Shown: positions 8,043 through 49,372 of the stretch, one piece after another
Numbering within the stretch: the first letter of the stretch is position 1
Layout: each line of letters begins with the position of its first letter
Source: Candidatus Babeliales bacterium
GTDB taxonomy: Bacteria > Babelota > Babeliae > Babelales > JACPOV01
Length of the DNA stretch: 64,000 bases
Reading direction: 5' to 3'
Assembly: GCA_050250855.1 (NCBI GenBank)
Contig: JBFWNW010000003.1
Location: forward strand, 145,856-209,855
Program-made: the position numbers and the translations under genes
The notes under the pieces: generated by a model
Databases searched by the model: none
What the model saw: only the letters and a program-made list of their open reading frames with translations
What the model was told of the DNA's origin: nothing

Positions 8043-9386
8043 TTAGAGCCTCTGGATAAGTGAATTTAGCAATAATGCTAAAAAAACATTCTCTAAATTA
8101 GGAGTGATTTGTGCAACCTTGACTGGCTCACTAATTTCTCCTAAAGTTTTTTGTGTTTCTTGTAAAAGTTGCATAAAAGTATCGTCACTTTCATAGCTTT
8201 GGTTGGCAAAATAGTTAATAATATCTTGTAATCTATTTAATGGTAACGGCAGCATAGATTTCATCACAGTATAAAACATATCATAATTTAAACTGTTTTC
8301 ATGCAATAATGAATTTTCATCATACTCATTTGCCAAGCAAAGTAATGCTTTGATCTTTTCATCAACATATTTAAGTGGATTTTTTATAATATCTTCAATA
8401 GCTGCTTGCAATTTTTTGTTAACAACTTCTTGATTAAAATAAAACTGGCTACATGCATTGATATCAGAACCATGTACAAGAAGCAGTGCTATACAATCAA
8501 TATTATTACTCACAAGAGCACTTACAAGCGGTGTGTAACCTAAAATATCTTTTGCATCTATTTCAACTTTAGCATCAATAAGAAGTTTTAAACACTCTAC
8601 GTGCCCATGCAGAGCAGCCACATGAAGTGGTGTTTCTACATTGTTATCTGGCTTATGAATATCAGCACCATGTTTCATAAAAATCTTTGCGCAATCTTTA
8701 TGACCTCCGCAAATAGCCGCACTAAAAGGTGTTTGACCAGTTGATCCATTTATACTATCTATTTCAGCTTTAGAAGCAATGAGCAATTTAACGCAAGCTA
8801 AGTTTCCTTTTGCAGCTGCTTTATAAAGAGGAGTTTCTCTTTTTTCATCTTTGCTATTTACATTCTCATTATTATTCACCAGAAGCTCTAAACAATGGTC
8901 TTTCCCTTTTTCAGCAAACAAATGAAGAAGTTTGTTTTTATCTTTCTTATCAAGCTTTGCTCCATTTAGAAAAAGATATTCTGCACAATCAGCATCTTTT
9001 TGAAGAAAGGCTATATCAAGTGGTGTATTTTTAGACAGATCTTTTGCATCAACCTTAGCACCATTTTTAATAAGCAATTCAGCGCAATCTTTATATCCCT
9101 TTTGAACAGCACAATGAAGGGGACTGTTTCCCAAATAATTTGACTTATTCACATCAGCACCCTGTTGAATGCTTGTTTCAATTGCTTGCAAAATAATTTG
9201 ATTATGGGTTAAACCCTTTTTCATACCACCAATAAGCCTAGAAATATCATTCTTATTGTGTGCAATAAAAGAAAAAAGATCATATATCTCTGGTCTCTTG
9301 AACGGATTATTTTCAACATCTTCTGCCGCGTACAGGGCCCCCGCAAGACTACAAGTTAGGGTAAAGATGGTAAGTAGTTTTTTCAT
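8043..9386 (-). CDS. Secreted ankyrin-repeat protein
   Basis: 447 aa. Signal peptide MKKLLTIFTLTCSLAGALYA. About 8 ankyrin repeats (NSPLHCAVQKGYKDCAELLIKNGAKV, ETPLHVAALHGHVECLKLLIDAKVEI and others). Confidence 0.9.
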   Translation of the reverse strand: MKKLLTIFTLTCSLAGALYAAEDVENNPFKRPEIYDLFSFIAHNKNDISRLIGGMKKGLTHNQIILQAIETSIQQGADVNKSNYLGNSPLHCAVQKGYKDCAELLIKNGAKVDAKDLSKNTPLDIAFLQKDADCAEYLFLNGAKLDKKDKNKLLHLFAEKGKDHCLELLVNNNENVNSKDEKRETPLYKAAAKGNLACVKLLIASKAEIDSINGSTGQTPFSAAICGGHKDCAKIFMKHGADIHKPDNNVETPLHVAALHGHVECLKLLIDAKVEIDAKDILGYTPLVSALVSNNIDCIALLLVHGSDINACSQFYFNQEVVNKKLQAAIEDIIKNPLKYVDEKIKALLCLANEYDENSLLHENSLNYDMFYTVMKSMLPLPLNRLQDIINYFANQSYESDDTFMQLLQETQKTLGEISEPVKVAQITPNLENVFLALLLNSLIQRL

Positions 9387-10654: not shown

Positions 10655-12016
10655 ATGCTGTTTTTTATTCTATTTATTATTTTTATTGCTATTAATGCAT
10701 CATATCCAGAACTTGATACAAATTTTGGCCAAAATGGTAAAGTCATAACTGATCTTGGCCGCAATACCGGTGGTGTTAATTGTTATCATCCATCAATGCA
10801 TGTTGTAACTCAACCAGATGGAAAAATTATTATCGTTGCAGACATTTATAGCAATAATATATTCGCTTCTACAGAAATTGTAGATTCTGATTTTCTTCTC
10901 ATACGCTACAATCCCGACGGCTCACTTGATAAATCTTTTGGAAATCAAGGAGTAGTTGCTCTTAAAATAAGTACAAGCGAAGATCCTGATGACTTTGCAT
11001 TTGATATTGCTTTGCAAAAAAATGGAAAAATTATCGTTGTAGGCCAAACATGGCAACGAGGAGGAGGTCTTTCTGATGGTGTCTTACTAAGACTAAATCA
11101 AAATGGCTCATTAGACCAATCTTTTGGCAATCAAGGCATTATAATAGAAAATTATTATGGCCATATTATTTCAGGCTTCTTTAGAGTTAAACTACAAGAT
11201 GATGAAAAAATTATCGTTGTTGGTTCAGAAGGCCTTGGAGCACCAAATGCTGATCCAATAGAAAAAAGCTATCGCCAATTCTTCATTGCTCGCTATATAA
11301 AAGAAGGAAAAATTGATACTTCATTTGGTGAAAATGGTTATGCTTCATCACCATTGCAAGATTATGAGATGAGTTTTATTGATGCTATTCATATACAAAA
11401 AAATGGAATTATCCTTGTTGCCGGTGCAACCAATGACGTTCGCACGGCAGATGAATGGAAAGAACCTTTAAAACATACTGGCGTCGTAAGATCATATCAT
11501 CCAGATGGATCTCTTAATGAATCTTTTGGCACTAAAGGAACCGTTATTTTACCAAATATGGCAATATTAGATATTATAGAACAAGAAGATGGTAAAATTT
11601 TAGCTGTAGGCTTTAGTTATAATGCTGGACATAACACACATTGTTGGAAGATTATTCAACTACTGCCAAATGGACAGCTAAACTATGATTTTAATAAGAT
11701 ATTCAACGAAAATAATCCTATTGAAGGAACTATTCAAAAATGTGCCGCAAAAAATATTATAGTTAGCTCAACTAATAAAATTCTTGTTACAGGTTATGCA
11801 GAACTTGATGGCAAAAACTGTTTTGCTGTTGCTTGCTATAATGAAGATGGTAGCCTGGATGAAAACTGGGGCAATGAAGGGAAATTATATACCACCTTCG
11901 ATTCTTATCATGATAAAAGCCTAGCCCTATCACTTCAAGACAATAAATTAATAGTTGTTGGTGAAAGCTTTAATGGCACATATTTTAATATCGCTCTTGC
12001 ACGTTTTTTGCTTTAA
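10655..12016 (+). CDS. Delta-60-repeat (beta-propeller-like) protein with N-terminal signal/anchor
   Basis: 453 aa. About 7 repeats spaced about 50-60 aa apart with the motif D-x-[ST]-F-G-x-x-G (DTNFGQNG, DKSFGNQG, DQSFGNQG, DTSFGENG, NESFGTKG, DENWGNEG), as in TIGR02608. AAGGGGG RBS. Confidence 0.7.
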   Translation: MLFFILFIIFIAINASYPELDTNFGQNGKVITDLGRNTGGVNCYHPSMHVVTQPDGKIIIVADIYSNNIFASTEIVDSDFLLIRYNPDGSLDKSFGNQGVVALKISTSEDPDDFAFDIALQKNGKIIVVGQTWQRGGGLSDGVLLRLNQNGSLDQSFGNQGIIIENYYGHIISGFFRVKLQDDEKIIVVGSEGLGAPNADPIEKSYRQFFIARYIKEGKIDTSFGENGYASSPLQDYEMSFIDAIHIQKNGIILVAGATNDVRTADEWKEPLKHTGVVRSYHPDGSLNESFGTKGTVILPNMAILDIIEQEDGKILAVGFSYNAGHNTHCWKIIQLLPNGQLNYDFNKIFNENNPIEGTIQKCAAKNIIVSSTNKILVTGYAELDGKNCFAVACYNEDGSLDENWGNEGKLYTTFDSYHDKSLALSLQDNKLIVVGESFNGTYFNIALARFLL

Positions 12017-13237: not shown

Positions 13238-14038
13238 TCAATCTATTTTTACGTTCTGATCATGAAAAAAGCTTAAAAGCTTCCTATGCATGAGATCAGC
13301 CCCCGCTACATATGATCGATAACCAGGTATAACCGGCTTGCCTGTATAGGTGGAAACTATACCGCCAGCCTCCTGAATTAGTATTAAACCAGCTGCCACA
13401 TCCCACCACGATAAATCCTCAAAAAAGATACCATCTGCGCGGCCACAGGCAACGTATGCCTGATCAAGCGCTATTGCTCCCAGGTGCCTAAATGCATAGG
13501 TGCGCGGCGAAATATCCTCAAGATGATGCAGCACACTCAAAAAAGCTTTACCTTTAGCATACGGAAACCCTACTAAAAAGAGAGAACGGTCCAATGAACG
13601 CTCTTTGGATACCGTAATTTTTTGGTCATTCAAAAATGCTCCTGCTCCCTTTTGAGCGTAAAAAAGCTCATCAAAAAGCGGTACATAGATCATGCCAAAA
13701 ACCGGCTGCTGTTTGTAAGTCAATGCTACCGATATGCAAAAATAAGGAATACCAAACGCAAAGTTGGTGGTACCATCAAGGGGATCTATAACCCAACAAT
13801 AATCCGCATCTTGATTGCCTCGCTTGCCCGATTCTTCAGCAAAAAATGATGCTTCCGGCATCACATTGGCAAGCTCTTGCATTAAAAATGTCTCGCTTGC
13901 CAGATCAGCTTCGGTCACAAATCCCTGATCTTTTTTATCACGCCAGGTCATCTGCTTGTGATAATAGAAAAGAAGAATCTCTCCCGCTTTACGTATAATC
14001 GGCTCAACCTGTAGCTTAAGCTCTTTATGCATCAGCAA
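13238..14038 (-). CDS. suhB: Inositol monophosphatase family protein (SuhB-like)
   Basis: IMPase motifs [12 protein letters not shown] and WWDVAAG. 266 aa. Confidence 0.85.
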
Positions 14039-16703
14039 GTGCCTTATCTGTTAAACGAAAACTTTCACGCGGTTCAATACCCAAAAGCTTATAAATTTCA
14101 TCAGCATACAATGTTTCTTTTTCAAGAAGTGTTTTTGCCAAGAGATCAAGCTTGTCGCGATTATCTTTTAATAATTTCTCAGTTCTTTGTTGTGCATCTT
14201 TGAGTAAGTTATGAACTACTTCATCAATCTTTTCAGCAGTTTTTTGTGAATACTCAAATTGGCCGTTACCTTGATTATAAACAACGGTGCCAAGCTCATC
14301 GGTCATACCATAACGGCACACCATATTACGCGCAGCATGTGATGCTTTGTTAAAATCATCAGCAGCACCAGAACTCAATACATTAAAAATAATCGTTTCA
14401 GCAACACGGCCACCTAAGGCAACCATGATATCAGCAAAAATCTCTTCTTTAGTTGCAAGATATTTTTCACGGTCAGGTAATGAATAGGAAACTCCTAATG
14501 CTTTACCTCGTGGCAAAATAGTAACCTTGTGTAAAGGATCTGCATGATCTGGCAATAAAAGACGAATCAACGTATGGCCAGATTCATGGAATGCAACCAT
14601 TTCACGCTCTTTTGGTGATAACACCACTGAACGCAACTCTTTACCTAATAAAATTTTATCACGCGCTTGCTCAAAATCTGTCATGCTTACCGTTTGTTTT
14701 TCTTGATGCTTTGTTGCAAGCAATGCCGCTTCATTGACCAAGTTTGCCAAATCAGCACCAGAAAAGCCTGGCGTTCCTCGTGCAATACGCATCAAATCAA
14801 CATCAGTATCTAATTTTATTTTTTTTGCATGAACAGCAAGAATTTGCTCACGACTTTTAATATCTGGATACGGCACATCAACTCTACGGTCAAATCTGCC
14901 TGGACGCAATAACGCGTTATCAAGCATATCAGGACGGTTTGTTGCCGCCATAACAATAACAGTAGAACCTTCTGAATTAAAACCATCCATTTCTGTTAAC
15001 AATTGGTTTAATGTTTGCGCTCGCTCATCGCTGCCGCCATCAAAACCTGCAACACGCTTGCCACCAACTGCATCAATTTCATCAATAAATACTATAGATG
15101 GCGAGTGTTTACGCACTTGTGCAAAAAGCTCACGTACGCGAGAAGCACCAACGCCAACATACATTTCTACAAAATCTGAAGCACTTACGCTAAAGAATGG
15201 ACAGTTTGCTTCGCCAGCAACTGCTTTGGCCAATAATGTTTTACCATTACCAGGTTCCCCAACAAGCAATACACCACTTGGCAATGTTGCTCCTAGGCGA
15301 CGATATTTTTCAGGATTTTTAAGAAAATCTACCACTTCCTGCAGCTCTTCTTTTGCTTCAGGAATACCAGCAACATCATCAAATTTCGTTTTTACTTGGG
15401 TAGGCATAAACATTTTTGGCTTACTGCTACTTTTACCAAGCATAGCACCACTGCCCATAGAAGCTTTTTTACGCGATTCTAAAATAGCGGTACGTGCATC
15501 AAGTAAATCTTGCATGCCAACTTTTTTCTGATTTTTCTTTGAGCAACTAATAGCTGCTTCATTAACAAGATTTTCTAAATCAGCACCAGAAAAACCTGCT
15601 GTTTCTTGCGCTAATTGCTCAAAATCAATAGCGTCTTCAACGCGCACTTTACGTGTATGAATTTCTAAAATTTCTTTACGTGTTTGTGTATCGGGATATT
15701 CAACCGTCACCCAACGGTCAAAGCGACCAGGGCGCAAGAGCGCTTTATCAAGCACTTCAGGAATATTGGTTGCTGCAATAACAATAACATTAGAATTTAA
15801 TGCATCAAAACCATCCATTTCAGTAAGCAACTGGTTTAATGTTTGTTCACGTTCGTCATGACCACCACCAAAACCACTACCGCGAGAACGGCCAATAGCA
15901 TCAATCTCATCAATAAAAATAATAGCTGGTGCATGTTTGCGAGCCTGTGCAAAAAGATCACGTACACGGGCAGCGCCAACACCAACAAATACTTCTATAA
16001 AATCTGAACCGGTAATACTAAAGAAAGGACAGTTTGCCTCACCTGCAACTGCTTTAGCTAATAATGTTTTACCATTACCAGGTTCACCAACTAATAAAAC
16101 ACCACGAGGAATTTTTGCGCCCAAACGGCGATATTTTTCAGGATTTTTCAAAAAATCAACGATATCGGCAAGCGCTTCTTTTGCCTGCTTTGAACCAGCA
16201 ACAGAATTAAAGCCTACATTAATCATAGAAGGCATTACCATACGCGCTCGGCTTTTGCCCATATTAAAGATGCTGCTCCCACTTCCGCCAGAACCTTGTC
16301 CGCGACGGAAAAAGTACCAAACAGCTAAAGGTAAAAGTAATAACAATGATAAAAAGACCATGTACCACATGCCATAAGAGCTTGATACCGGGATAACGTG
16401 AATATCAACGCCATGCTCTTTTAAAAGATCCCAATTTCTTGGGGTATCAACAATCGTTGCTTCAAAGCGAGTTCCATCTTTATCATTCAAAACACCGTAT
16501 ACATCTTGTCCTGCTATTTGAACAGATTTTACTTTACCCTGCTCTACCGCAGCAATAAAGCTTGAATAATGCATAGTTTTTACCTGACGAGAATAGTCAG
16601 TCAAATAGGTAAGCATAATGATACCAAACAGAAATGCCCCTACCATAATAAGGATATTTTTTGGTCCTTTTGGTACATGATTCATGGTAAATTTGTTTTT
16701 CAT
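14025..16703 (-). CDS. ftsH: FtsH-type membrane AAA+ zinc metalloprotease with two tandem AAA+ modules
   Basis: 892 aa. Two N-terminal TM helices, then two full AAA modules. Both have [14 protein letters not shown] and RPGRFDR. An M41 domain with HESGH follows. Confidence 0.9.
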
Positions 16704-16873: not shown

Positions 16874-18208
16874 TCAACTAACTACTAAAGGAACCTTATA
16901 GGCAGGCGACCAGGCAGGATGGTTACAACGATCCTGTGCTGAGGTCAAAAAGGTTCGCTCTTGCGTAACAAGATTCAGTACCGCTATACGGCTAGCTGAA
17001 CCTGTCTGCACTGTAAAAGCAAGATAGTTGCCACAAGGGGACCAGGTACATTCTTCTTTATGGTTTTTATCAAAGGTTACCTGTTCACTTTTTTTGGTTT
17101 TCATATCATAGACAAAAATTTGCATAGCCCCATCAACAAACGCACTATACGCTATTTTGCCACTTTTAGCACAATAGGCTGGGCTCACACAATGGTCGCC
17201 ATCGGTCAATACTTCTGTTTGCTCGGTAAATGCATGGTAGTAGCACACCTGTGGCCCTTTTTTGTAAGCATCAGAACAAAAAATAATATCCCCATTTTCA
17301 CACAACGTTGGACAAACATTATTACCATTATTAGCAGTAATTGGCCGCACTAAAGATTCATCATCTTTTTGTTCACATACATATAACTGACTTTTTCCAT
17401 TCAATGAACGACAATAAATAACGCGCTTACTATCTGCAGAAAATGAAGGCAACATATTAAACCCGTCAAAATTAGAAACGAGTTTTCGTTGTTTGTGCAA
17501 ATCAACCGACATTAAACGAATGTTAGAACGCGTTGCCTCCGAATATAATAATAATGGTGAAATGCTGTCTTTGTTCCAGCGCAGGGCAAATGCTCTACCC
17601 TTTTCTACTAAGGGCGTGCAAAATTCATTATAGAGTGATTGTGCAGGATCTGCATATGGCGGTGCCAGGCAAATAGTGCGTGCTCGTTTTTTTTCACCCT
17701 GCACTTCTTTACAAAATGCAATACGAGAGGTAAAAAAGCCCTCCTGTCCTGTCAAAAGCGGCCACAATTGCCCTGCTAATAATTCTGCTCTGCAGCGCAC
17801 CGGCATATCTTGTTTTGCAAAACGCTTACCGCGCACCATTGAAGCTACTTTGGTATCATACATGCGCCACTCTAAAAAATTATCCGCTGATTCAGTTATA
17901 AATACCGAAAGAGGAAAACCATCTACGGCCATCTGTTTTACTTGTTTTGTAGTAGGAACTTTTTCAAACGATTTTACCGTAACTTTAAAACCACTGGTGC
18001 GTTGGTTCGTGCGATCAAGCATAATTTTTATATACCGCGCAAACTCATCAAGTTCTGCGGTATGTTTACCAACGACACCAAGCAATAGAGGCATTTTTTG
18101 TTGCTGTTCTTGCTTGCTTTGAATGGTCATGGTTGAGGCTTGCGGCTTTGCATACAATGCTTGCTGCATTACAAAAATCATTACTAATGACAAAAGCTTT
18201 TTTTTCAT
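16874..18208 (-). CDS. tolB: Tol-Pal system beta-propeller protein TolB
   Basis: Signal peptide. GFFTSRIAF motif. Repeated propeller motifs (WSPCGNYLAF, PAWSP). Sits downstream of tolQ-tolR-tolA. Confidence 0.8.
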   Translation of the reverse strand: MKKKLLSLVMIFVMQQALYAKPQASTMTIQSKQEQQQKMPLLLGVVGKHTAELDEFARYIKIMLDRTNQRTSGFKVTVKSFEKVPTTKQVKQMAVDGFPLSVFITESADNFLEWRMYDTKVASMVRGKRFAKQDMPVRCRAELLAGQLWPLLTGQEGFFTSRIAFCKEVQGEKKRARTICLAPPYADPAQSLYNEFCTPLVEKGRAFALRWNKDSISPLLLYSEATRSNIRLMSVDLHKQRKLVSNFDGFNMLPSFSADSKRVIYCRSLNGKSQLYVCEQKDDESLVRPITANNGNNVCPTLCENGDIIFCSDAYKKGPQVCYYHAFTEQTEVLTDGDHCVSPAYCAKSGKIAYSAFVDGAMQIFVYDMKTKKSEQVTFDKNHKEECTWSPCGNYLAFTVQTGSASRIAVLNLVTQERTFLTSAQDRCNHPAWSPAYKVPLVVS

Positions 18209-34027: not shown

Positions 34028-34044
34028 AAAACCTCAAAAAAAAT

Positions 34045-34128
34045 GGGAAGCGATACAAGATATTTTACACTTCTGCTGCTTCGTTTCCGACCTGACAGGG
34101 TGAGCATAAAAAACCTTTATTGCTTCCC
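34045..34128 (-). ncRNA. ffs: Small (4.5S-type) signal recognition particle RNA
   Basis: The minus-strand RNA starts GGGAAGCAAUA and ends UAUCGCUUCCC, which together form the closing helix. The apical domain IV, CAGGUCG-GAAA-CGAAGCAGC, matches E. coli CAGGUCC-GGAA-GGAAGCAGC. A U-tract follows. Confidence 0.85.
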
Positions 34129-34220
34129 AAACTTATAATTTCATTAACAAGATATTGTTATGGTATCTTATTTTATAAAAAAAACAACCGAAAAATAAAA
34201 GGCCCGCTACGCGCGACGGC

Positions 34221-34391: not shown

Positions 34392-34483
34392 TGGCGGAGA
34401 GAGAGGGATTCGAACCCTCGATGCCTTTTTAGAGACATACACGATTTCCAATCGTGCTCCTTCGACCGCTCGGACATCTCTCC
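34392..34483 (-). tRNA. tRNA-Ser (anticodon GGA), CCA encoded
   Basis: Folded by hand. Acceptor stem is GGAGAGA/TCTCTCC. Anticodon stem is CACGA/TCGTG with loop TTGGAAA. It has a long variable arm, T-arm GAGGG-TTCGAAT-CCCTC, discriminator G and CCA. Confidence 0.9.
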
Positions 34484-38800: not shown

Positions 38801-41233
38801 ATGAATTCAGAAATTATTAACCAACAGCCCCTGCACCAACCCCCTCTGCACAATATGCTACCTCTTTTACCGCTTAAAAATGTAGTCATATTGCCTAAGA
38901 CTATCGTGCCTATAATTGTTGGACGAGAGATTTCTGTAAAGGCTGTGGAAGAGGCATTAAGAGGTGATGGCTCTATTTTTATCTCCACTCAAAAGGATGG
39001 CGAGGTAGAAAACCCTACCCAAAAAGATGTTTTTGAGTATGGTATACGTGCCACTATCCTTCAGGTTCCCAAAGAAGAACAACGCCGTTATAATGGTATG
39101 TTTAAAATCTTGGTAGAAGGCCTTTCTCGAGCAAAAATAGTAAGCTCTCATGTTGAAAATGGCTTTATTATGGTTACCTGCCAAGACCTTCCTACAACAA
39201 ATCTAGAGCTTTCTACCCATATGCAGGCATTATGGCGCTATGCAAAAGGACTCTATGAAAGCTATGCTCGTCTTAATGAAAAAATCCCCGCCGATTTAAT
39301 GAGCTTGGCAAAAACAGCAGAAGATATGGATACTATTGCAGATACTATTGCTGTTCATTTAAATCTTTCTTTTTTTGATCGCCAAGAACTTGTTGAAACA
39401 GTTGATCTTAAAGAACGTTTAACAAAACTTAGCAAATTCTTAGCACAAGAAATCGAAATTCTTGAAACAGAAAAACGTATTAAAGGCCGCGTTCAAAATC
39501 AGGTTGAAAAAAATCAACGTGAATATTATTTAACAGAACAAATTAAAGCTATCCAAAAAGAGCTTGGCCGTGATGATCATCAACATGATATTAATGAAAT
39601 TCGTGCAAAAATAAAAACGCTTGGCTTGCCAGAAGAAGTCTATGAAAAGACAGAAAAAGAGTTAAAGCGCTTAGATCAGATGCCACCTCTTTCTGCTGAA
39701 GCAGTTGTTTCTCGTAACTATGTTGACTGGGTAATTTCATTACCATGGAATAAACAAAGTAAAGATCGCATTAGCTTGGCCCAAGCCGAAAAAATTTTAA
39801 ATCAAAAACATGCAGGCTTAAGCAAAGCAAAAGAACGTATTATCGAGTTCTTGGCTGCAAAAAAATATTCTAAATCGTTAGAACGCTCCCCTATTATTTG
39901 CCTTGTAGGAGCTCCAGGTGTTGGTAAAACATCACTTGCTTCTTCTATTGCAGAAAGTTTGGGGCGTGAATTTGTACGTATCTCTTTAGGTGGTATTCGC
40001 GATGAAGCTGAAATTCGTGGTCATCGCAGAACCTATATTGGTGCATTACCAGGAAAAATTTTACAAGCCATGCGTAAAGCAAAAACAGTAAACCCAGTTA
40101 TTTTGCTTGATGAGATTGATAAAATGACCCGTGATATTCATGGTGATCCTGCTGCCGCATTACTTGAGGTACTTGACCCAGAACAAAACAAAAATTTTGT
40201 AGATCATTTTCTTGAAGTTGAATATGACCTTTCAAAGGTTATGTTTATTGCTACTGCCAATATGATTGATACTATTCCGTTACCGCTTTTTGACCGTATG
40301 GAAATTATCACGTTACCTGGTTATATCGACGAAGAAAAAGTTACCATCGCTCGAAAATTCTTGATCCCTAAAGGACTTAAAGAACACAGTTTGGATGCTC
40401 ATGCTTTTAAAATAAGCGATGAGCTTTTAGAGCATCTTGTTTCTTATTACACGCGAGAAGCTGGGGTCCGTCAGCTAGAACGAGTTTTAAATAAACTTAT
40501 GCGCAAAGTTATTCAAGAACTACTCAACAAACCAGAAAAAAAATCGGTCGCTATAACTAAAGAGTTGATTGTTGAGTGGCTTGGCTATCAAAAATACAAA
40601 AAAACATCACTTGACCATTCAAAAGATCGCTGTGGACTTGCTACAGGACTTGCTTGGACAGAAGTTGGTGGTGATATTTTAGAGATTGAATCTACCGTGC
40701 TTCCTGGCAAAGGTAATGTAACCCTAACAGGACAGCTTGGTGAAGTAATGCAAGAATCTGCTCAGGCAGCATTAAGCTATATTCGCTCTCGCTCAGCTGC
40801 ACTTGGAATTAATGCTTCGTTCCACTCAAATAAGGACATTCACGTTCATTTACCAGAAGGTGCAACCCCTAAAGATGGCCCATCTGCTGGTATTACCATG
40901 TGTGCGGCTTTAGTTTCTATGCTTACTAAAAACCCTACCAAAGCGGCTGTTGCCATGACAGGTGAAATAACCTTGCGTGGCCGCGTATTGGCAGTTGGTG
41001 GCCTTAAAGAGAAACTTTTAGCTGCTCAACAACATGGGATGAAAACCGTTCTTGTTCCTAAAGAAAATGAAGATGACATTAATGAAATGTCTAAAGAAGT
41101 GAAAACTAGCCTTTCTATCATCTTTGTTGAAAATATGGATGAAGTACTTAAGCATGCATTGGTTAATGACCCTTTCATTCTTAAGCCAAAAAGAAAAAGA
41201 AAAAAAAGAACTAAAAAGAAAAGTAAGAAGTAA
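38801..41233 (+). CDS. lon: ATP-dependent Lon protease
   Basis: LON N-domain. Walker [10 protein letters not shown]. Catalytic-serine motif [20 protein letters not shown]. Polybasic C-terminal tail. Confidence 0.93.
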
Positions 41234-45061: not shown

Positions 45062-46954
45062 TTATGCTGCTGGATTAAGACGTCGCTTCATCCACGTTTT
45101 AAGAGCTTCTTTATTTGCTATAAGATTATTACCCGCCAACGCAGAAAGTTCATTAAATGTTTTCTTGCCATACCCAAAGTTAAAAGTATTGCATTCACTT
45201 TCTTTTACGCAAGCCTGCGGATCAAAAGTAGCCACTGTATCAAATAATCCCGCAGTTTTTAATACTGCATCATCTTTCATATAGTTAACATATATAATTA
45301 AAGGAGGCTTGACTGAAGGATAATCTTTATAATTATTTTGCGGCTCAAATACCTTAAATGTTTTATTATCAACTACTTTATTATAGGTAATACCATAAAA
45401 ACTTTGAACGTCTTTAAGGCCAAGAACAAGCTCACTGTCATCACCATTTGGTTTATCAACAACATTGGCAGAAGCATCACCAACGATAATAATATCTATT
45501 TTGCGCTCTGGTCTAAAGAGTGGACGTATTGGAATATTATAAGAAAGACCTGCGTCAACTAAGGTTAAATAATCATATTGTTGCAAGGCAGAAGAGGCTT
45601 GCGCAAAACCTTTAAAAGGATTAAATACTTGTGCTGGTGAAATACGCTGAGGAACTTCTAATCGTTTTTTTCTTATATCCAGTTTATACTCACCTGTTGC
45701 AGCCCATGCTCTGACTAATCGTGAGCCAGCATAATCTTTGGCATCGTTAAATACTTTTTCAATATCGCCTTTTGCTAAATTCTTAGCCCCTTTTTTAATA
45801 AGGTTTGCAAAATCTTGCACTTCTTTTTTTGCCTTATCAAGCACACTTTTATTCTTTGCGTCCTCAGCCTCCATACTTGGAAACATAAGATTAGCAATTG
45901 ATTGAGCATTAATCGTATATGCAGAACCAAAAATTCCCATTAAAAACCCAAAACTTTGACCTGCAGAGAATTTACCTGTCCCTTTAGAAAATTTAGTACC
46001 AAATGCCCATGATGGGAAGAAAAGACTTTCTTCCAAATTTCTTACCTCTTCTGGATTAAATTCATACCAATGATAGGTAAAATCACGCGGCACTGCACCA
46101 TCACGTATACCAGCAGCAGTATAAATTGGCCATGGCGTATTACCGGTACTAACAAGAGGCAACTGAGAAAAAATTCTTTGTTGATGACGAGCCTCTCCTT
46201 TTTGAGCTAACAAATAATGAGAAAGAACACCGCCATAAAGATCTACCGATGTTATGGTTTGTCCAAATATAATTTTTGGCCAAAGAATGTTTGCATTAAA
46301 ATTTGAAAAATTAAAATCAGTAAGTGCATCTTTCTTTGTTGCTATATCAAAATGGTTTGTATCTATCTTTCTTACCAAAAGAGCATTAAACTCCGATGGG
46401 GTCAAAGGCATTAATTGTGCTGGTTGTATCACCCCACGAATACGCGGTCTAAAACCACCTGTTTTGCTTTCTAATAACCAAGGCCCCAAATACCATGTTG
46501 AACCAGATAACGCAGAAACATATAAAATAGAGTTTAAAATACCTAATTTTTCTAATGCTTCCATCCACCCTGCTGTTGCAATCATAGCACGATAGCCGCC
46601 ACCACTAAATGCACATGCCACATTTAAATCTTGCTTAACGGTTTCCCCTAAAAACGCAGAAAGAGCTTGTTGGGCTTTAGCTCGTCTTTTTGTTAAAAAT
46701 GATCTCTCAGCTGCGCTCATTTGATTATTTTTTGCAACATACGCTGTTTGATTTCTGTAAGGATAATCAGGATCGGTAGACTTCATATTATCAGTATAAA
46801 ATTTGGTAAAACTGGGCAAACTAAATAGTTGCCAAAATTCTGCCATACGCGTTTGTATGCTTTTGGTGAATTCTGTTATAGAGCTAAAATCTTTTGCTCC
46901 ATACAATGCATTGCTCACGAGCAACATAGCTAATAATATCTTTTTCTTCTGCAT
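45062..46954 (-). CDS. Secreted eukaryote-type cytosolic-PLA2/lysophospholipase-like enzyme (PLA2_B domain)
   Basis: Signal peptide. SGGGYRAM (oxyanion/Arg), YVSALSGSTWY (nucleophile Ser, codon about nt 46505-46507) and LVDAGLSYNIP (Asp) parallel human cPLA2-alpha SGGGFRAM, GLSGSTWY and VDSGLTFNLP. Confidence 0.8.
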   Translation of the reverse strand: MQKKKILLAMLLVSNALYGAKDFSSITEFTKSIQTRMAEFWQLFSLPSFTKFYTDNMKSTDPDYPYRNQTAYVAKNNQMSAAERSFLTKRRAKAQQALSAFLGETVKQDLNVACAFSGGGYRAMIATAGWMEALEKLGILNSILYVSALSGSTWYLGPWLLESKTGGFRPRIRGVIQPAQLMPLTPSEFNALLVRKIDTNHFDIATKKDALTDFNFSNFNANILWPKIIFGQTITSVDLYGGVLSHYLLAQKGEARHQQRIFSQLPLVSTGNTPWPIYTAAGIRDGAVPRDFTYHWYEFNPEEVRNLEESLFFPSWAFGTKFSKGTGKFSAGQSFGFLMGIFGSAYTINAQSIANLMFPSMEAEDAKNKSVLDKAKKEVQDFANLIKKGAKNLAKGDIEKVFNDAKDYAGSRLVRAWAATGEYKLDIRKKRLEVPQRISPAQVFNPFKGFAQASSALQQYDYLTLVDAGLSYNIPIRPLFRPERKIDIIIVGDASANVVDKPNGDDSELVLGLKDVQSFYGITYNKVVDNKTFKVFEPQNNYKDYPSVKPPLIIYVNYMKDDAVLKTAGLFDTVATFDPQACVKESECNTFNFGYGKKTFNELSALAGNNLIANKEALKTWMKRRLNPAA

Positions 46955-47122: not shown

Positions 47123-49372
47123 ATGAAAACATTCAGATTTTTTAGTATAATTATAGCTGCATGCATACTGCATACTATCCATGCACAAGAATCACTTCAA
47201 CAAGAACTTTCAAAAAAAGTAAATGCAAGAGCTCCTTTTTCTGGTTCCATTTTTAATAATATTTTAGCACAACTTCAAATACCCCAAGCCTCAATTAATA
47301 TTGTTAAAGGCCTTTTTATAAAAACTCCTGTTCCCATTAAGCTTCCTGGCGAACTGACAAGTGGGACAGCTTTTGAAGGAGATGTTTTTTTCAAAGGAAA
47401 AGACACTAAAATTAAAGTTGTAGTTGGCCAAACGTTAACAAATCCTGAAGCTTTTAGTTTATCACTTGCTTTACCAGCGGGATGGAAGCTTTCTGATATT
47501 AGCTCACAACTTAGTTATTTAGATGAACTTTCTCTTACTAATGGTCAACTTATTTATTCAAATTTTATGTACAAAGATCTAGAACTTGCCACTGAAGTAC
47601 AAGCTGGTCTTAACTTTGTTGCAGATATCGCGCTAAAACCACCGCTCACTGTTTTGAATAAACTGATGGCAAATCAAAAAAAATTAAATGGGCTCGTAGT
47701 CGAAGGCGGCGCTGCAAAATTTAAAGGAACAGTAGCGCCAGATATAACCCAATCCTCATTTCTTATAGATTTACCGTTACGTTTTGGTGTTAATTTTGAA
47801 GCATTAGCAAAAAACCCAACCATACAAAACAATAAAGATGCAGAAAAAGTCGCACAAGCAGTAGCAAAAGTAATAAAAGAAATAACATCCGATACGTTTA
47901 CCGTAGAAGTAACACCACCGCCAAGTGTTGGCTTTTCAGTTGGCAGTGGCGTACGACTCCTGCTTGCAACACAAAAAGAACCAATAAGTTTTGATATGAG
48001 CGGACAACTTGTTGCTGGAGCACAAGAAGCACTTAATATGGTAGGGCAAATGAAAGGACCCCTGCACCTTGCCCAATGGCTTACTTTTTCTGATGCAGGA
48101 TTAGAGATTGATTGGGATTTTGCCCTTATTTCAGAGCTTGCCGCTGTTGGTATTCCTCTTCCTTTCACCGGCCTTGGCATGAGTGGCTGGGTTTATCTTG
48201 GCAAGGAAGGTGATAAACAAGCAGCTATAAATCTTACCGGTGGCCTTCGCTTCAAACAAGGAGATAAATTTCCTTCAGAATTTGCATTCCAAGGCATTGG
48301 TAAAAATTTAGATTTTAAATATGTAGTACAATTTTTAGCAGAAAAAATTGCAAAAAAAAGAATTAATGCAAGTATCCCTACTATGATGCTAAAAGACTTT
48401 ATCGTAAAAGCATCCCCCGTACCTACTAAATTTATCGGAGAAAAATATGAAGCAGGAATGCTTTTTGATGGTAATGCACAACTTTTTGATGTTGATGCTT
48501 CTCTTCATTTTAGTTTAAATCCAGACCCAACAGTTTTGGCTATGACAGGAAATGGAAAAGCTTCTGTCATAAATATCACTTCCCAAGGCAAAAAGCTTTT
48601 CACGCTTTCTGGATCAAAACCTAATGAAGGACCTTCTTTGAGCTTCTTGGTATCAGCAAAAAATCCTGAAGCAACTAACTTTATGTTTGACGGCACACTC
48701 GATATTCCTGTATTAGGAATACGAGAACAAGTAAAAAATTTACGCGTAGAGCTTGATAGAATATCAGGAACTTTTGAATCAAAACTTGGTAATCTTCTTG
48801 ATGTTGATGCTACCGTTAACATTCAACCATCACAACCACTCAAATCTGAAGTTGATCTTGCCTTCAAACAAAATATTGTAGACGTGCTTTCAAAATCTGT
48901 TTCTGCAAAGCTCCGCGCAGCAAAGGTGCAATTTGAAAAAACTAAAGCAGAAAAAGAGCTTGAAGAAAAAAAACAAGAGTTTCATGACAAGTGCAAAGGA
49001 ACTAATTATTTTAAACATATAAAAACATGCTCAAAGTTATCCGCAGAAATAACGGCGCTAGGAACAAAAGTTGCCGCAGAAAAAACTAAACAAGCTTTTG
49101 ATCCAAAAAGAATTAAAGATATCTTAGAAGAAATTGCACAAAAAGCATTAGTTCCTGCGCTCAAAGCTTTTGAAATCAAAGAAATGAGTGCTTCATGGAA
49201 AGCTTCACAGGGATTACCTGTTATTAACAAGATGGTAATACACATTAACGTCGCAAGCTTTAAAAAGGTAATTGAGCTCACTAATATCTCCTTTGACCCT
49301 AAGAATATAGCTAAAGACCTTGATACCTGGGCAAACCTGATTGTAAAAGAGATCATTAACCAGATAAAATAG
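47123..49372 (+). CDS. Large secreted protein, function unknown
   Basis: 749 aa. Signal peptide MKTFRFFSIIIAACILHTIHA. AGGAG RBS. Coiled-coil-like C-terminal 150 aa. No recognisable family. Confidence 0.7.
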   Translation: MKTFRFFSIIIAACILHTIHAQESLQQELSKKVNARAPFSGSIFNNILAQLQIPQASINIVKGLFIKTPVPIKLPGELTSGTAFEGDVFFKGKDTKIKVVVGQTLTNPEAFSLSLALPAGWKLSDISSQLSYLDELSLTNGQLIYSNFMYKDLELATEVQAGLNFVADIALKPPLTVLNKLMANQKKLNGLVVEGGAAKFKGTVAPDITQSSFLIDLPLRFGVNFEALAKNPTIQNNKDAEKVAQAVAKVIKEITSDTFTVEVTPPPSVGFSVGSGVRLLLATQKEPISFDMSGQLVAGAQEALNMVGQMKGPLHLAQWLTFSDAGLEIDWDFALISELAAVGIPLPFTGLGMSGWVYLGKEGDKQAAINLTGGLRFKQGDKFPSEFAFQGIGKNLDFKYVVQFLAEKIAKKRINASIPTMMLKDFIVKASPVPTKFIGEKYEAGMLFDGNAQLFDVDASLHFSLNPDPTVLAMTGNGKASVINITSQGKKLFTLSGSKPNEGPSLSFLVSAKNPEATNFMFDGTLDIPVLGIREQVKNLRVELDRISGTFESKLGNLLDVDATVNIQPSQPLKSEVDLAFKQNIVDVLSKSVSAKLRAAKVQFEKTKAEKELEEKKQEFHDKCKGTNYFKHIKTCSKLSAEITALGTKVAAEKTKQAFDPKRIKDILEEIAQKALVPALKAFEIKEMSASWKASQGLPVINKMVIHINVASFKKVIELTNISFDPKNIAKDLDTWANLIVKEIINQIK

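Follow-up and report, generated by a model that had tools for sequence, protein, structure and literature searches.

The 64-kb stretch of DNA analysed here (the window), part of contig JBFWNW010000003.1 of a Babeliales bacterium, carries an ftsH gene (14025-16703, reverse strand) whose product contains two AAA+ modules in tandem. The bacterium belongs to the phylum Dependentiae (formerly TM6), a lineage of intracellular parasites. The gene is a single open reading frame (ORF) of 892 amino acids (aa), starting with ATG and with its sole stop codon at the end. In Pfam, the protein matches FtsH_ext once, AAA twice, AAA_lid_3 twice and Peptidase_M41 once. It scores 1189.6 bits with the NCBIfam equivalog model for FtsH, TIGR01241 (cutoff 600), and 916.6 with the E. 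coli-type FtsH model NF008004, under its cutoff of 1008. The N-terminal anchor is also of the FtsH type, with two transmembrane (TM) helices around a periplasmic domain, as identified from the FtsH_ext match and from helices in AlphaFold2 (AF2) models. Instead of the single AAA module per chain expected of an FtsH, however, there are two full AAA plus lid modules, which we name D1 and D2 from the N-terminus (Table 1). By descent the protein is an FtsH, but its architecture departs from the canonical one.

The catalytic residues can be located in both modules. D1 contains a Walker A motif at aa 206-213, the pore-1 loop F239-V-G, Walker B residues D265/E266, sensor-1 N313 and Arg fingers R324/R327; the corresponding positions in D2 are aa 482-489, Y515-V-G, D541/E542, N589 and R600/R603. 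The zinc motif HESGH occupies aa 706-710 (nucleotides (nt) 14574-14588), and D783 (nt 14355-14357) is the likely third zinc ligand. The original prediction for this locus, made from the DNA letters and a list of ORFs, had described one intact FtsH frame with two TM helices and a C-terminal M41 domain, enclosing two full AAA+ modules 276 codons apart. The ORF, Pfam and TIGR01241 agree with that description of the frame, and the spacing is borne out by direct repeats lying 828 nt apart from start to start and by the twofold detection of AAA and lid domains. The positions it gave for HESGH, for Walker A (GEPGNGKT, aa 206 and 482), for the Walker B DE pairs (265-266 and 541-542), for the pore loops and for RPGRFDR (aa 324 and 600) are likewise all correct.

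Table 1. Features of the tandem-AAA ftsH locus in the window, and ftsH genes of the related contig L026
Feature	Location	Strand	Evidence
ftsH ORF, tandem-AAA	14025..16703	-	ORF list; Pfam and NCBIfam; full-length orthologs at 55-78% identity
TM helix 1 (about aa 17-37)	16593..16655	-	hydrophobic stretch; AF2 helix aa 15-40
Periplasmic FtsH_ext (about aa 38-110)	16374..16592	-	Pfam PF06480 on aa 17-103, E=3.4e-9
TM helix 2 (about aa 111-132)	16308..16373	-	hydrophobic stretch; AF2 helix aa 112-135
Repeat unit 1 (aa 134-409): Gly/Ser linker, MGKSRARM motif, D1 AAA large and lid subdomains	15477..16304	-	
Repeat unit 2 (aa 410-685): linker, GKSSSKPKM motif, D2 AAA large and lid subdomains	14649..15476	-	
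Peptidase_M41 (aa 694-872)	14088..14624	-	PF01434, E=2.7e-59
TolB-like beta-propeller gene, upstream of ftsH	16874..18208	-	Pfam PD40; order same in L028, L029
Inositol monophosphatase-family gene, downstream of ftsH	13238..14038	-	Pfam Inositol_P, E=4e-61
Canonical single-module FtsH, 613 aa	L026 6772-8613		
FtsH P0240, 637 aa, different N-terminus, 62% identical to window D2+M41	L026 10001-11914		
Three-module FtsH, 1086 aa, Walker B lost in all three modules, HESGH kept	L026 12638-15898		

Internal duplication of the ATPase unit

The two modules correspond to direct repeats spaced exactly 828 nt from start to start; one pair (14826-15125 and 15654-15953) shows 71% identity, and a second pair with the same spacing (14725-14800 and 15553-15628) shows 74%. 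In the protein, aa 134-416 align with aa 411-693 with 60% identity and two single-residue gaps. The duplicated unit comprises 276 aa, from the linker that follows TM helix 2, with its GKS+A+M motif, through the end of the lid helix. Over a core of 251 codons the copies share 68% nucleotide identity, and their third codon positions are 52% identical, versus a chance expectation of 32% from composition, which suggests that synonymous sites are close to saturation. With copies only 68-74% identical in nucleotide sequence and third positions near saturation, the duplication is ancient rather than recent, and what similarity remains in the DNA is mostly due to conserved residues and to AT-biased codon use.

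These values qualify two statements of the original prediction. The duplication had been described as still visible in the DNA: the repeats are real, and so is the 25-mer quoted as an example, which occurs exactly twice (15233-15257 and 16061-16085; 0 of 100 shuffles matched), but the implied recency is overstated, considering the third codon positions. Likewise, the antisense ORFs at 15058-15531 and 15937-16377, said to translate into near-identical peptides, are so over about 24 residues only and not overall; the pair is a mechanical by-product of reading both copies in reverse.

Orthologs and conservation of both modules

A search of a collection of 5.8 billion proteins, from which the best 120 matches were taken, retrieved 103 full-length orthologs of 830-943 aa and 55-78% identity, all of them with two Walker A motifs, two Walker B motifs and one HExGH. 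The named matches are annotated as 'ATP-dependent zinc metalloprotease FtsH', and come from Candidatus Babeliales, Babeliaceae or Dependentiae metagenome-assembled genomes. A second search, using as a query a single-module FtsH from a Babela-like contig, yielded about 20 further two-module clusters, some of them on contigs of 1.5-1.9 Mb (the largest of 1.87 Mb). Of its best 120 matches, 119 were two-module proteins; this list is nearly all double because two-module proteins outscore single-module ones, and does not amount to a tally of the single forms. In a pattern scan of genome contigs with the window protein, the chosen patterns matched only canonical FtsH genes of unrelated phyla and no Dependentiae. 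In total, more than 120 independent clusters share the two-module layout, all of them labelled plain FtsH. The layout is not, therefore, a peculiarity of this genome, and it seems undescribed as an architecture. The novelty put forward in the original prediction, which assumed an architecture neither common nor annotated among FtsH homologs, is partly undercut by these more than 120 Dependentiae clusters and by versions with two to four modules in other phyla (see below).

We aligned the D1 and D2 modules of the 103 orthologs with 23 canonical FtsH modules and with those of multi-AAA proteins from Bacteroidales. The Walker A K/T, the Walker B D/E, the pore-1 aromatic-V-G, the sensor-1 N, both Arg fingers of the second region of homology (SRH) and the DGF intersubunit motif are invariant in D1 and D2 alike (103/103). 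The pore-1 aromatic residue is always Phe in D1, and either Tyr (86 orthologs) or Phe (17) in D2. Residues H706, E707, H710 and D783 of the protease are also invariant, and the distance from one Walker A to the other is 270-278 aa, mostly 275-277. Mean identity was 71% within D1, 68% within D2, 63% between D1 and D2, and 54% when either module was compared with canonical FtsH. The values within each group indicate that neither copy is relaxed, and both are under strong purifying selection; the claim that neither copy looks decayed is thus well supported by the invariance of their catalytic motifs.

The modules differ, nonetheless, in two regions. Within-group identity in the pore-2 loop region is 0.84 for D1, which is here nearer to canonical FtsH, versus 0.62 for D2, whereas D2 is slightly more canonical than D1 in the lid leading into the protease. 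This distribution fits with D1 facing the membrane and engaging the substrate and with D2 being in contact with M41.

Origin of the modules and exceptions within Dependentiae

In a neighbour-joining tree of the modules, D1 sequences formed a clade with 92% bootstrap support and D2 sequences one with 59%, and both together were separated from canonical and Bacteroidales modules with 80% support. This topology indicates that the unit was duplicated once, before the sampled lineage diversified, after which the copies would have evolved separately under constraint. We observed no sign of gene conversion between D1 and D2 in the module tree or in the identities of the 103 orthologs.

Some members of the phylum are organised differently. 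The Babela-like contig L026, of 27% GC, contains three FtsH genes in a row (Table 1), and L027 is arranged alike. The three-module gene precedes Inositol_P-L28-S20, which is the syntenic position of the tandem-AAA ftsH elsewhere, and the degenerate Walker B stretches of its product read ILFIPKIH, IVFISNIEE and IIFIKNVE; as judged from these, the protein may be a bacterial FtsHi-like pseudo-ATPase. The module of the 613-aa canonical protein has a large subdomain resembling D1 and a lid resembling D2, although both states are also canonical and only 2-3 columns are strictly diagnostic. This single-module FtsH could be either the form that preceded the duplication or the result of a recombinant collapse of D1 and D2.

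Multi-module FtsH proteins outside Dependentiae

We also searched 1.84 billion cluster representatives with the window protein and counted the domains in the best 150. Together with M41, two AAA modules were present in 14 representatives, three in nine and four in one; another one had three AAA modules with M41 not detected, and two were whole FtsH-FtsH fusions. Named members include Muribaculaceae (three modules), Thermoleophilaceae (three, and also two) and Melainabacteria (two).

The Bacteroidales clusters P0002, P0069, P0094 and P0160 (one cluster bears the name Muribaculaceae), plus P0081, contain FtsH proteins of 1193-1470 aa in which a single M41 is combined with 3-4 AAA modules in tandem. 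P0002, whose proteins have four modules, comprises 1047 sequences; P0081 (L001 8001-12392), also with four modules and related to P0002, is located in a gut-metagenome contig, where its gene follows rsfS. Module 3 of the four-module proteins lacks the pore-1 aromatic residue and the SRH, and the other modules look intact. According to the module tree, the multi-module proteins of Bacteroidales originated independently of the duplication in Dependentiae. Further multi-AAA FtsH proteins are P0163, P0185, P0295/P0332, P0166/P0246, P0202 and P0217; among these lineages, one group includes proteins with four modules and proteins with three, and the context of its Walker B motifs is unusual. In some multi-AAA proteins the modules are mutual nearest neighbours, as would be produced by recent internal duplications, and the nearest-neighbour patterns as a whole indicate several independent duplications.

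Additionally, P0068, P0162 and P0280 (1021-1490 aa) are whole FtsH-FtsH fusions, with two AAA and two M41 domains. Fusion of whole genes is a different route to a double FtsH; some of these fusions may be assembly or gene-calling artefacts, and P0068 and its cluster are on contigs of about 4.8 kb.

Proteolytic context

Published COG counts for Babela massiliensis and TM6SC1 list, respectively, no ClpP, ClpX, HslU or HslV in either genome, 1 and 1 ClpA/B-type proteins, 2 and 3 Lon, and 4 and 1 FtsH (COG0465) (PMC4378268 Additional file 11). The single ClpA/B-type protein of Babela massiliensis is ClpB (PMC4378268), and two of its four COG0465 genes are highly divergent; Cdc48/SpoVK-type AAA ATPases (COG0464) are expanded, with 13 copies in Babela massiliensis and five in TM6SC1 (PMC4378268 Additional file 11). 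From these counts, Lon and FtsH are the only ATP-dependent proteases in at least these two organisms, and we hypothesize that the loss of ClpP, ClpX and HslUV may explain a reinforced FtsH. The window itself includes a complete LonA gene (38801-41233, forward strand), with LON substrate-binding, AAA, Lon_lid and Lon_C domains, which is the only other AAA+ protease gene within the 64 kb.

Proposed assembly and mechanism

FtsH is the only essential, near-universal membrane AAA+ protease, its textbook design is that of one ATPase ring on one protease ring, and the substrates it takes are considered to depend on its limited ability to unfold proteins. Taken as a whole, our results are best explained by the duplication of the ATPase unit and the retention of both copies as active modules, forming a stacked double ring on M41 that may make for a reinforced FtsH; we consider this explanation reasonably probable. 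The whole ATPase unit was duplicated, in tandem and in frame, in a bacterium ancestral to most of the phylum as sampled here, and the zinc protease has stayed intact. Each module preserves all the residues required for binding and hydrolysing ATP, for activating the site of the neighbouring subunit in trans and for gripping the polypeptide in the pore. Under the proposed model, six chains would assemble via the M41 ring, as in ordinary FtsH, into a three-tier cytoplasmic machine below the membrane, in which the protease chamber is topped by one ring of D1 and one of D2, and the substrate would be threaded from D1 to D2 and on to the protease, as in ClpA or Cdc48/p97. Speculatively, a normally weak unfoldase might hold its substrates more firmly and unfold them with more force thanks to the second active ring, which would be of use where Lon and FtsH seem to be the sole ATP-dependent proteases.

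Of the possible assemblies, a hexamer with two stacked rings is the one predicted as most likely from the sequences. Arg fingers acting in trans and the DGF motif suggest that each module sits in a ring. In FtsH crystal and cryo-EM structures, M41 forms a six-fold ring that drives assembly; with M41 as the six-fold base, the expected composition is six chains and twelve modules. In FtsH, moreover, the N-terminus of the module faces the membrane and the C-terminus of the lid exits toward the protease, which makes stacking the natural topology. AF2 monomer models of the entire chain and of the D1-D2 part by itself (12-sequence alignment) had, respectively, a predicted local distance difference test (pLDDT) of 80 and 77 and a predicted template-modelling score (pTM) of 0.52 and 0.45. 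The D2+M41 part superposes on AFG3L2 chain 6nyy_E (TMt 0.90; root-mean-square deviation (rmsd) 2.5 Å), and the linker between D1 and D2, of about 25 aa, is disordered, with pLDDT below 50 at aa 415-427.

An artefactual origin of the tandem modules, be it a collapsed or expanded repeat, adjacent genes joined by a sequencing error or a pseudogene, is next to negligible. Its only basis is the general prior that tandem repeats can be misassembled, whereas the two copies differ at about 30% of their nucleotides, such that no assembler would confuse them, the frame is open from end to end, and the architecture recurs in the more than 120 independent clusters, which derive from NCBI, JGI, ENA and Logan assemblies. 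An assembly artefact is, then, ruled out by the divergence of the copies and by these clusters, and a hidden frameshift by the uninterrupted frame; these were the two faults that the original prediction had named as capable of undoing it, and neither was found. A fusion of two whole FtsH genes is equally ruled out, because D1 and D2 are not separated by any remnant of M41, in contrast to the true fusions P0068, P0162 and P0280.

The alternatives that accept the protein as real concern how its modules work and assemble. The double ring could have one motor only, with the other ring, D1 or D2, binding nucleotide to stabilise or regulate the hexamer. This arrangement is common in type II AAA+ proteins, as proposed for D1 of p97 or D2 of NSF, and would agree with the variable pore-2 region of D2 as well as with the decay of modules in relatives, seen in the Walker B motifs of the 1086-aa protein of L026 and in module 3 of the Bacteroidales four-module proteins. 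We nevertheless consider it unlikely, since neither module has lost its Walker B Glu, its sensor 1, its pore-1 aromatic residue or either of its Arg fingers in any of the 103 orthologs, and rings that serve in assembly only typically lose some of these motifs. A different topology, in which D1 and D2 alternate in one six-membered ring of three chains, or in which the protein forms hetero-oligomers with single-module FtsH paralogs, is more improbable still. The disordered linker leaves a side-by-side placement sterically possible, single-module paralogs adjoin the multi-module gene in L026, and proteins with two and three modules divide six evenly; however, the four-module relatives do not, three chains would supply only three domains of a protease that is highly conserved and six-fold in FtsH, and the geometry of the module termini favours stacking.

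Several observations weigh against a stacked machine with two active rings. Not all members of the phylum share the layout: in Babela massiliensis, the FtsH encoded directly after TolQ-ExbD is 602 aa long, with room for one module, and the single-module genes and the degenerate three-module gene of L026 suggest that some members can do without the additional ring. In the AF2 models the individual domains are confident but the D1-D2 orientation is unreliable and unlike that of p97, and superposition on p97 and NVL (rmsd 8.7-27 Å; TMq about 0.4) agrees in collinearity only; the models speak neither for nor against stacking. Both modules are apparently active, their competence being judged from motifs alone, and the variable pore-2 loop of D2 suggests that this module may not move substrate in the manner of a canonical ring. 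Also, the data on the loss of Clp and HslUV are those of Babela massiliensis and TM6SC1, while the genome of the window is in view as 64 kb only.

More tentatively, the protein could represent a type II FtsH, that is, a membrane-bound three-tier machine with two active rings and a strong unfoldase, fixed in Dependentiae after the loss of ClpXP, ClpAP and HslUV, and a solution re-evolved elsewhere with two to four modules; we regard this broader proposal as possible rather than probable. If there are indeed two active rings, these proteins would constitute a natural experiment on what is gained with a second ring (grip, processivity, extraction of membrane proteins), on the evolution of new ring-ring interfaces after an internal duplication, and on how the reduced genomes of parasites compensate for the loss of Clp and HslUV. 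The independent versions with 2-4 modules suggest a general and overlooked route of AAA+ protease evolution, hidden by the annotation as 'FtsH'. These proteins should be of interest to specialists in AAA+ machines and in proteostasis, with the mechanism put forward as a proposal.

Gene neighbourhood and other contents of the window

The ftsH gene is part of a conserved neighbourhood, with the order poly(A) polymerase/CCA enzyme, tolQ, tolR, tolA-like, tolB-like, ftsH, inositol monophosphatase, L28 and S20. This order is kept in the contigs L028 and L029 from relatives, with L029 showing only S20 downstream of ftsH, and the inositol phosphatase occupies the matching position in L026 and L028. 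In the window, the inositol monophosphatase-family gene begins within the end of ftsH, the two genes having 14 nt in common.

The rest of the window, with about 36% GC, an ankyrin-repeat protein and the Lon gene, fits with the genome of an intracellular member of Dependentiae. Genes for an ankyrin-repeat protein (8043-9386, reverse strand), a DUF5122 beta-propeller protein (10655-12016, forward) and a protein with a PLA2_B lysophospholipase domain (45062-46954, reverse) are eukaryote-like or effector-type, and typical of intracellular parasites. The sole Rfam matches in the window were the bacterial small SRP RNA and a tRNA (34039-34131 and 34395-34483, both reverse), with no rRNA. A 749-aa ORF (47123-49372, forward) had no Pfam match at E<=1e-5.

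Comparison with known systems

As in canonical FtsH and in the m-AAA and i-AAA proteases (AFG3L2, YME1; MEROPS M41), the window protein contains two TM helices, a periplasmic domain, AAA of the classic clade with the SRH, and M41, and its D2+M41 part is about 50% identical to solved FtsH structures. Unlike them, it has two AAA plus lid modules per chain, whereas solved FtsH chains have at most 644 aa and one module. A search of the PDB retrieved no chain with two AAA modules plus M41, and in full-text searches of the literature we found no description of an FtsH with tandem AAA modules; the original statement that the architecture had not been described stands in this respect. Proteases are not mentioned in the TM6 comparative-genomics paper, nor is FtsH in one supplementary file of the Chromulinavorax paper. 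This is not a new family, because public databases already contain the architecture, where it is simply called FtsH.

Two tandem classic-clade AAA modules are also found in Cdc48/p97/VCP, NVL, archaeal VAT and NSF, and aa 159-667 align in a single stretch with p97 residues 197-702, across D1, linker and D2, with 36-38% identity. Contrary to Cdc48/p97, the window protein has no cofactor-binding N-domain, and it carries a membrane anchor and a protease in the same chain. It does not belong to the CDC48 family: its score with TIGR01243 is 469.5 (cutoff 802.65), its N-terminus is the FtsH anchor, and its modules group with FtsH. Indeed, within FtsH the window modules are closest to each other, indicating that the resemblance to p97 is convergent.

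Functionally, the putative arrangement would be analogous to that of ClpA/ClpC-ClpP, in which a two-tier unfoldase feeds a proteolytic chamber. Double rings are known to grip and unfold stable substrates better (PMC11570520, PMC7568338). The D1 and D2 of Clp come from different AAA+ clades, and its serine peptidase is a separate protein; the window protein instead combines two FtsH-type modules with a metalloprotease in one covalent chain. Type II Hsp100/Clp proteins have a D1 of the classic clade and a D2 of the HCLR clade, with Clp_N or M domains; the window protein is not one of them, with both modules FtsH-type and 60% identical, and with no Clp domains in Pfam.

The protein can further be compared with FtsH-derived proteins of chloroplasts, such as Ycf2 and the plant FtsHi. 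Orf2971 of Chlamydomonas, the Ycf2 ortholog, is the nearest published counterpart, and is reported to have two AAA+ ATPase domains, both of them active in vitro (PMC9421593). Orf2971, which lacks the protease, and FtsHi have lost either M41 as a whole or its zinc-binding site, and their roles are in protein import into chloroplasts and in quality control there; in the window protein HESGH is intact, and it is invariant among the orthologs, so that it does not conform to the FtsHi/Ycf2 pseudo-proteases. In all, without belonging to the Cdc48 or Clp families, the tandem-AAA FtsH of Dependentiae most likely works like a type II AAA+ protease.

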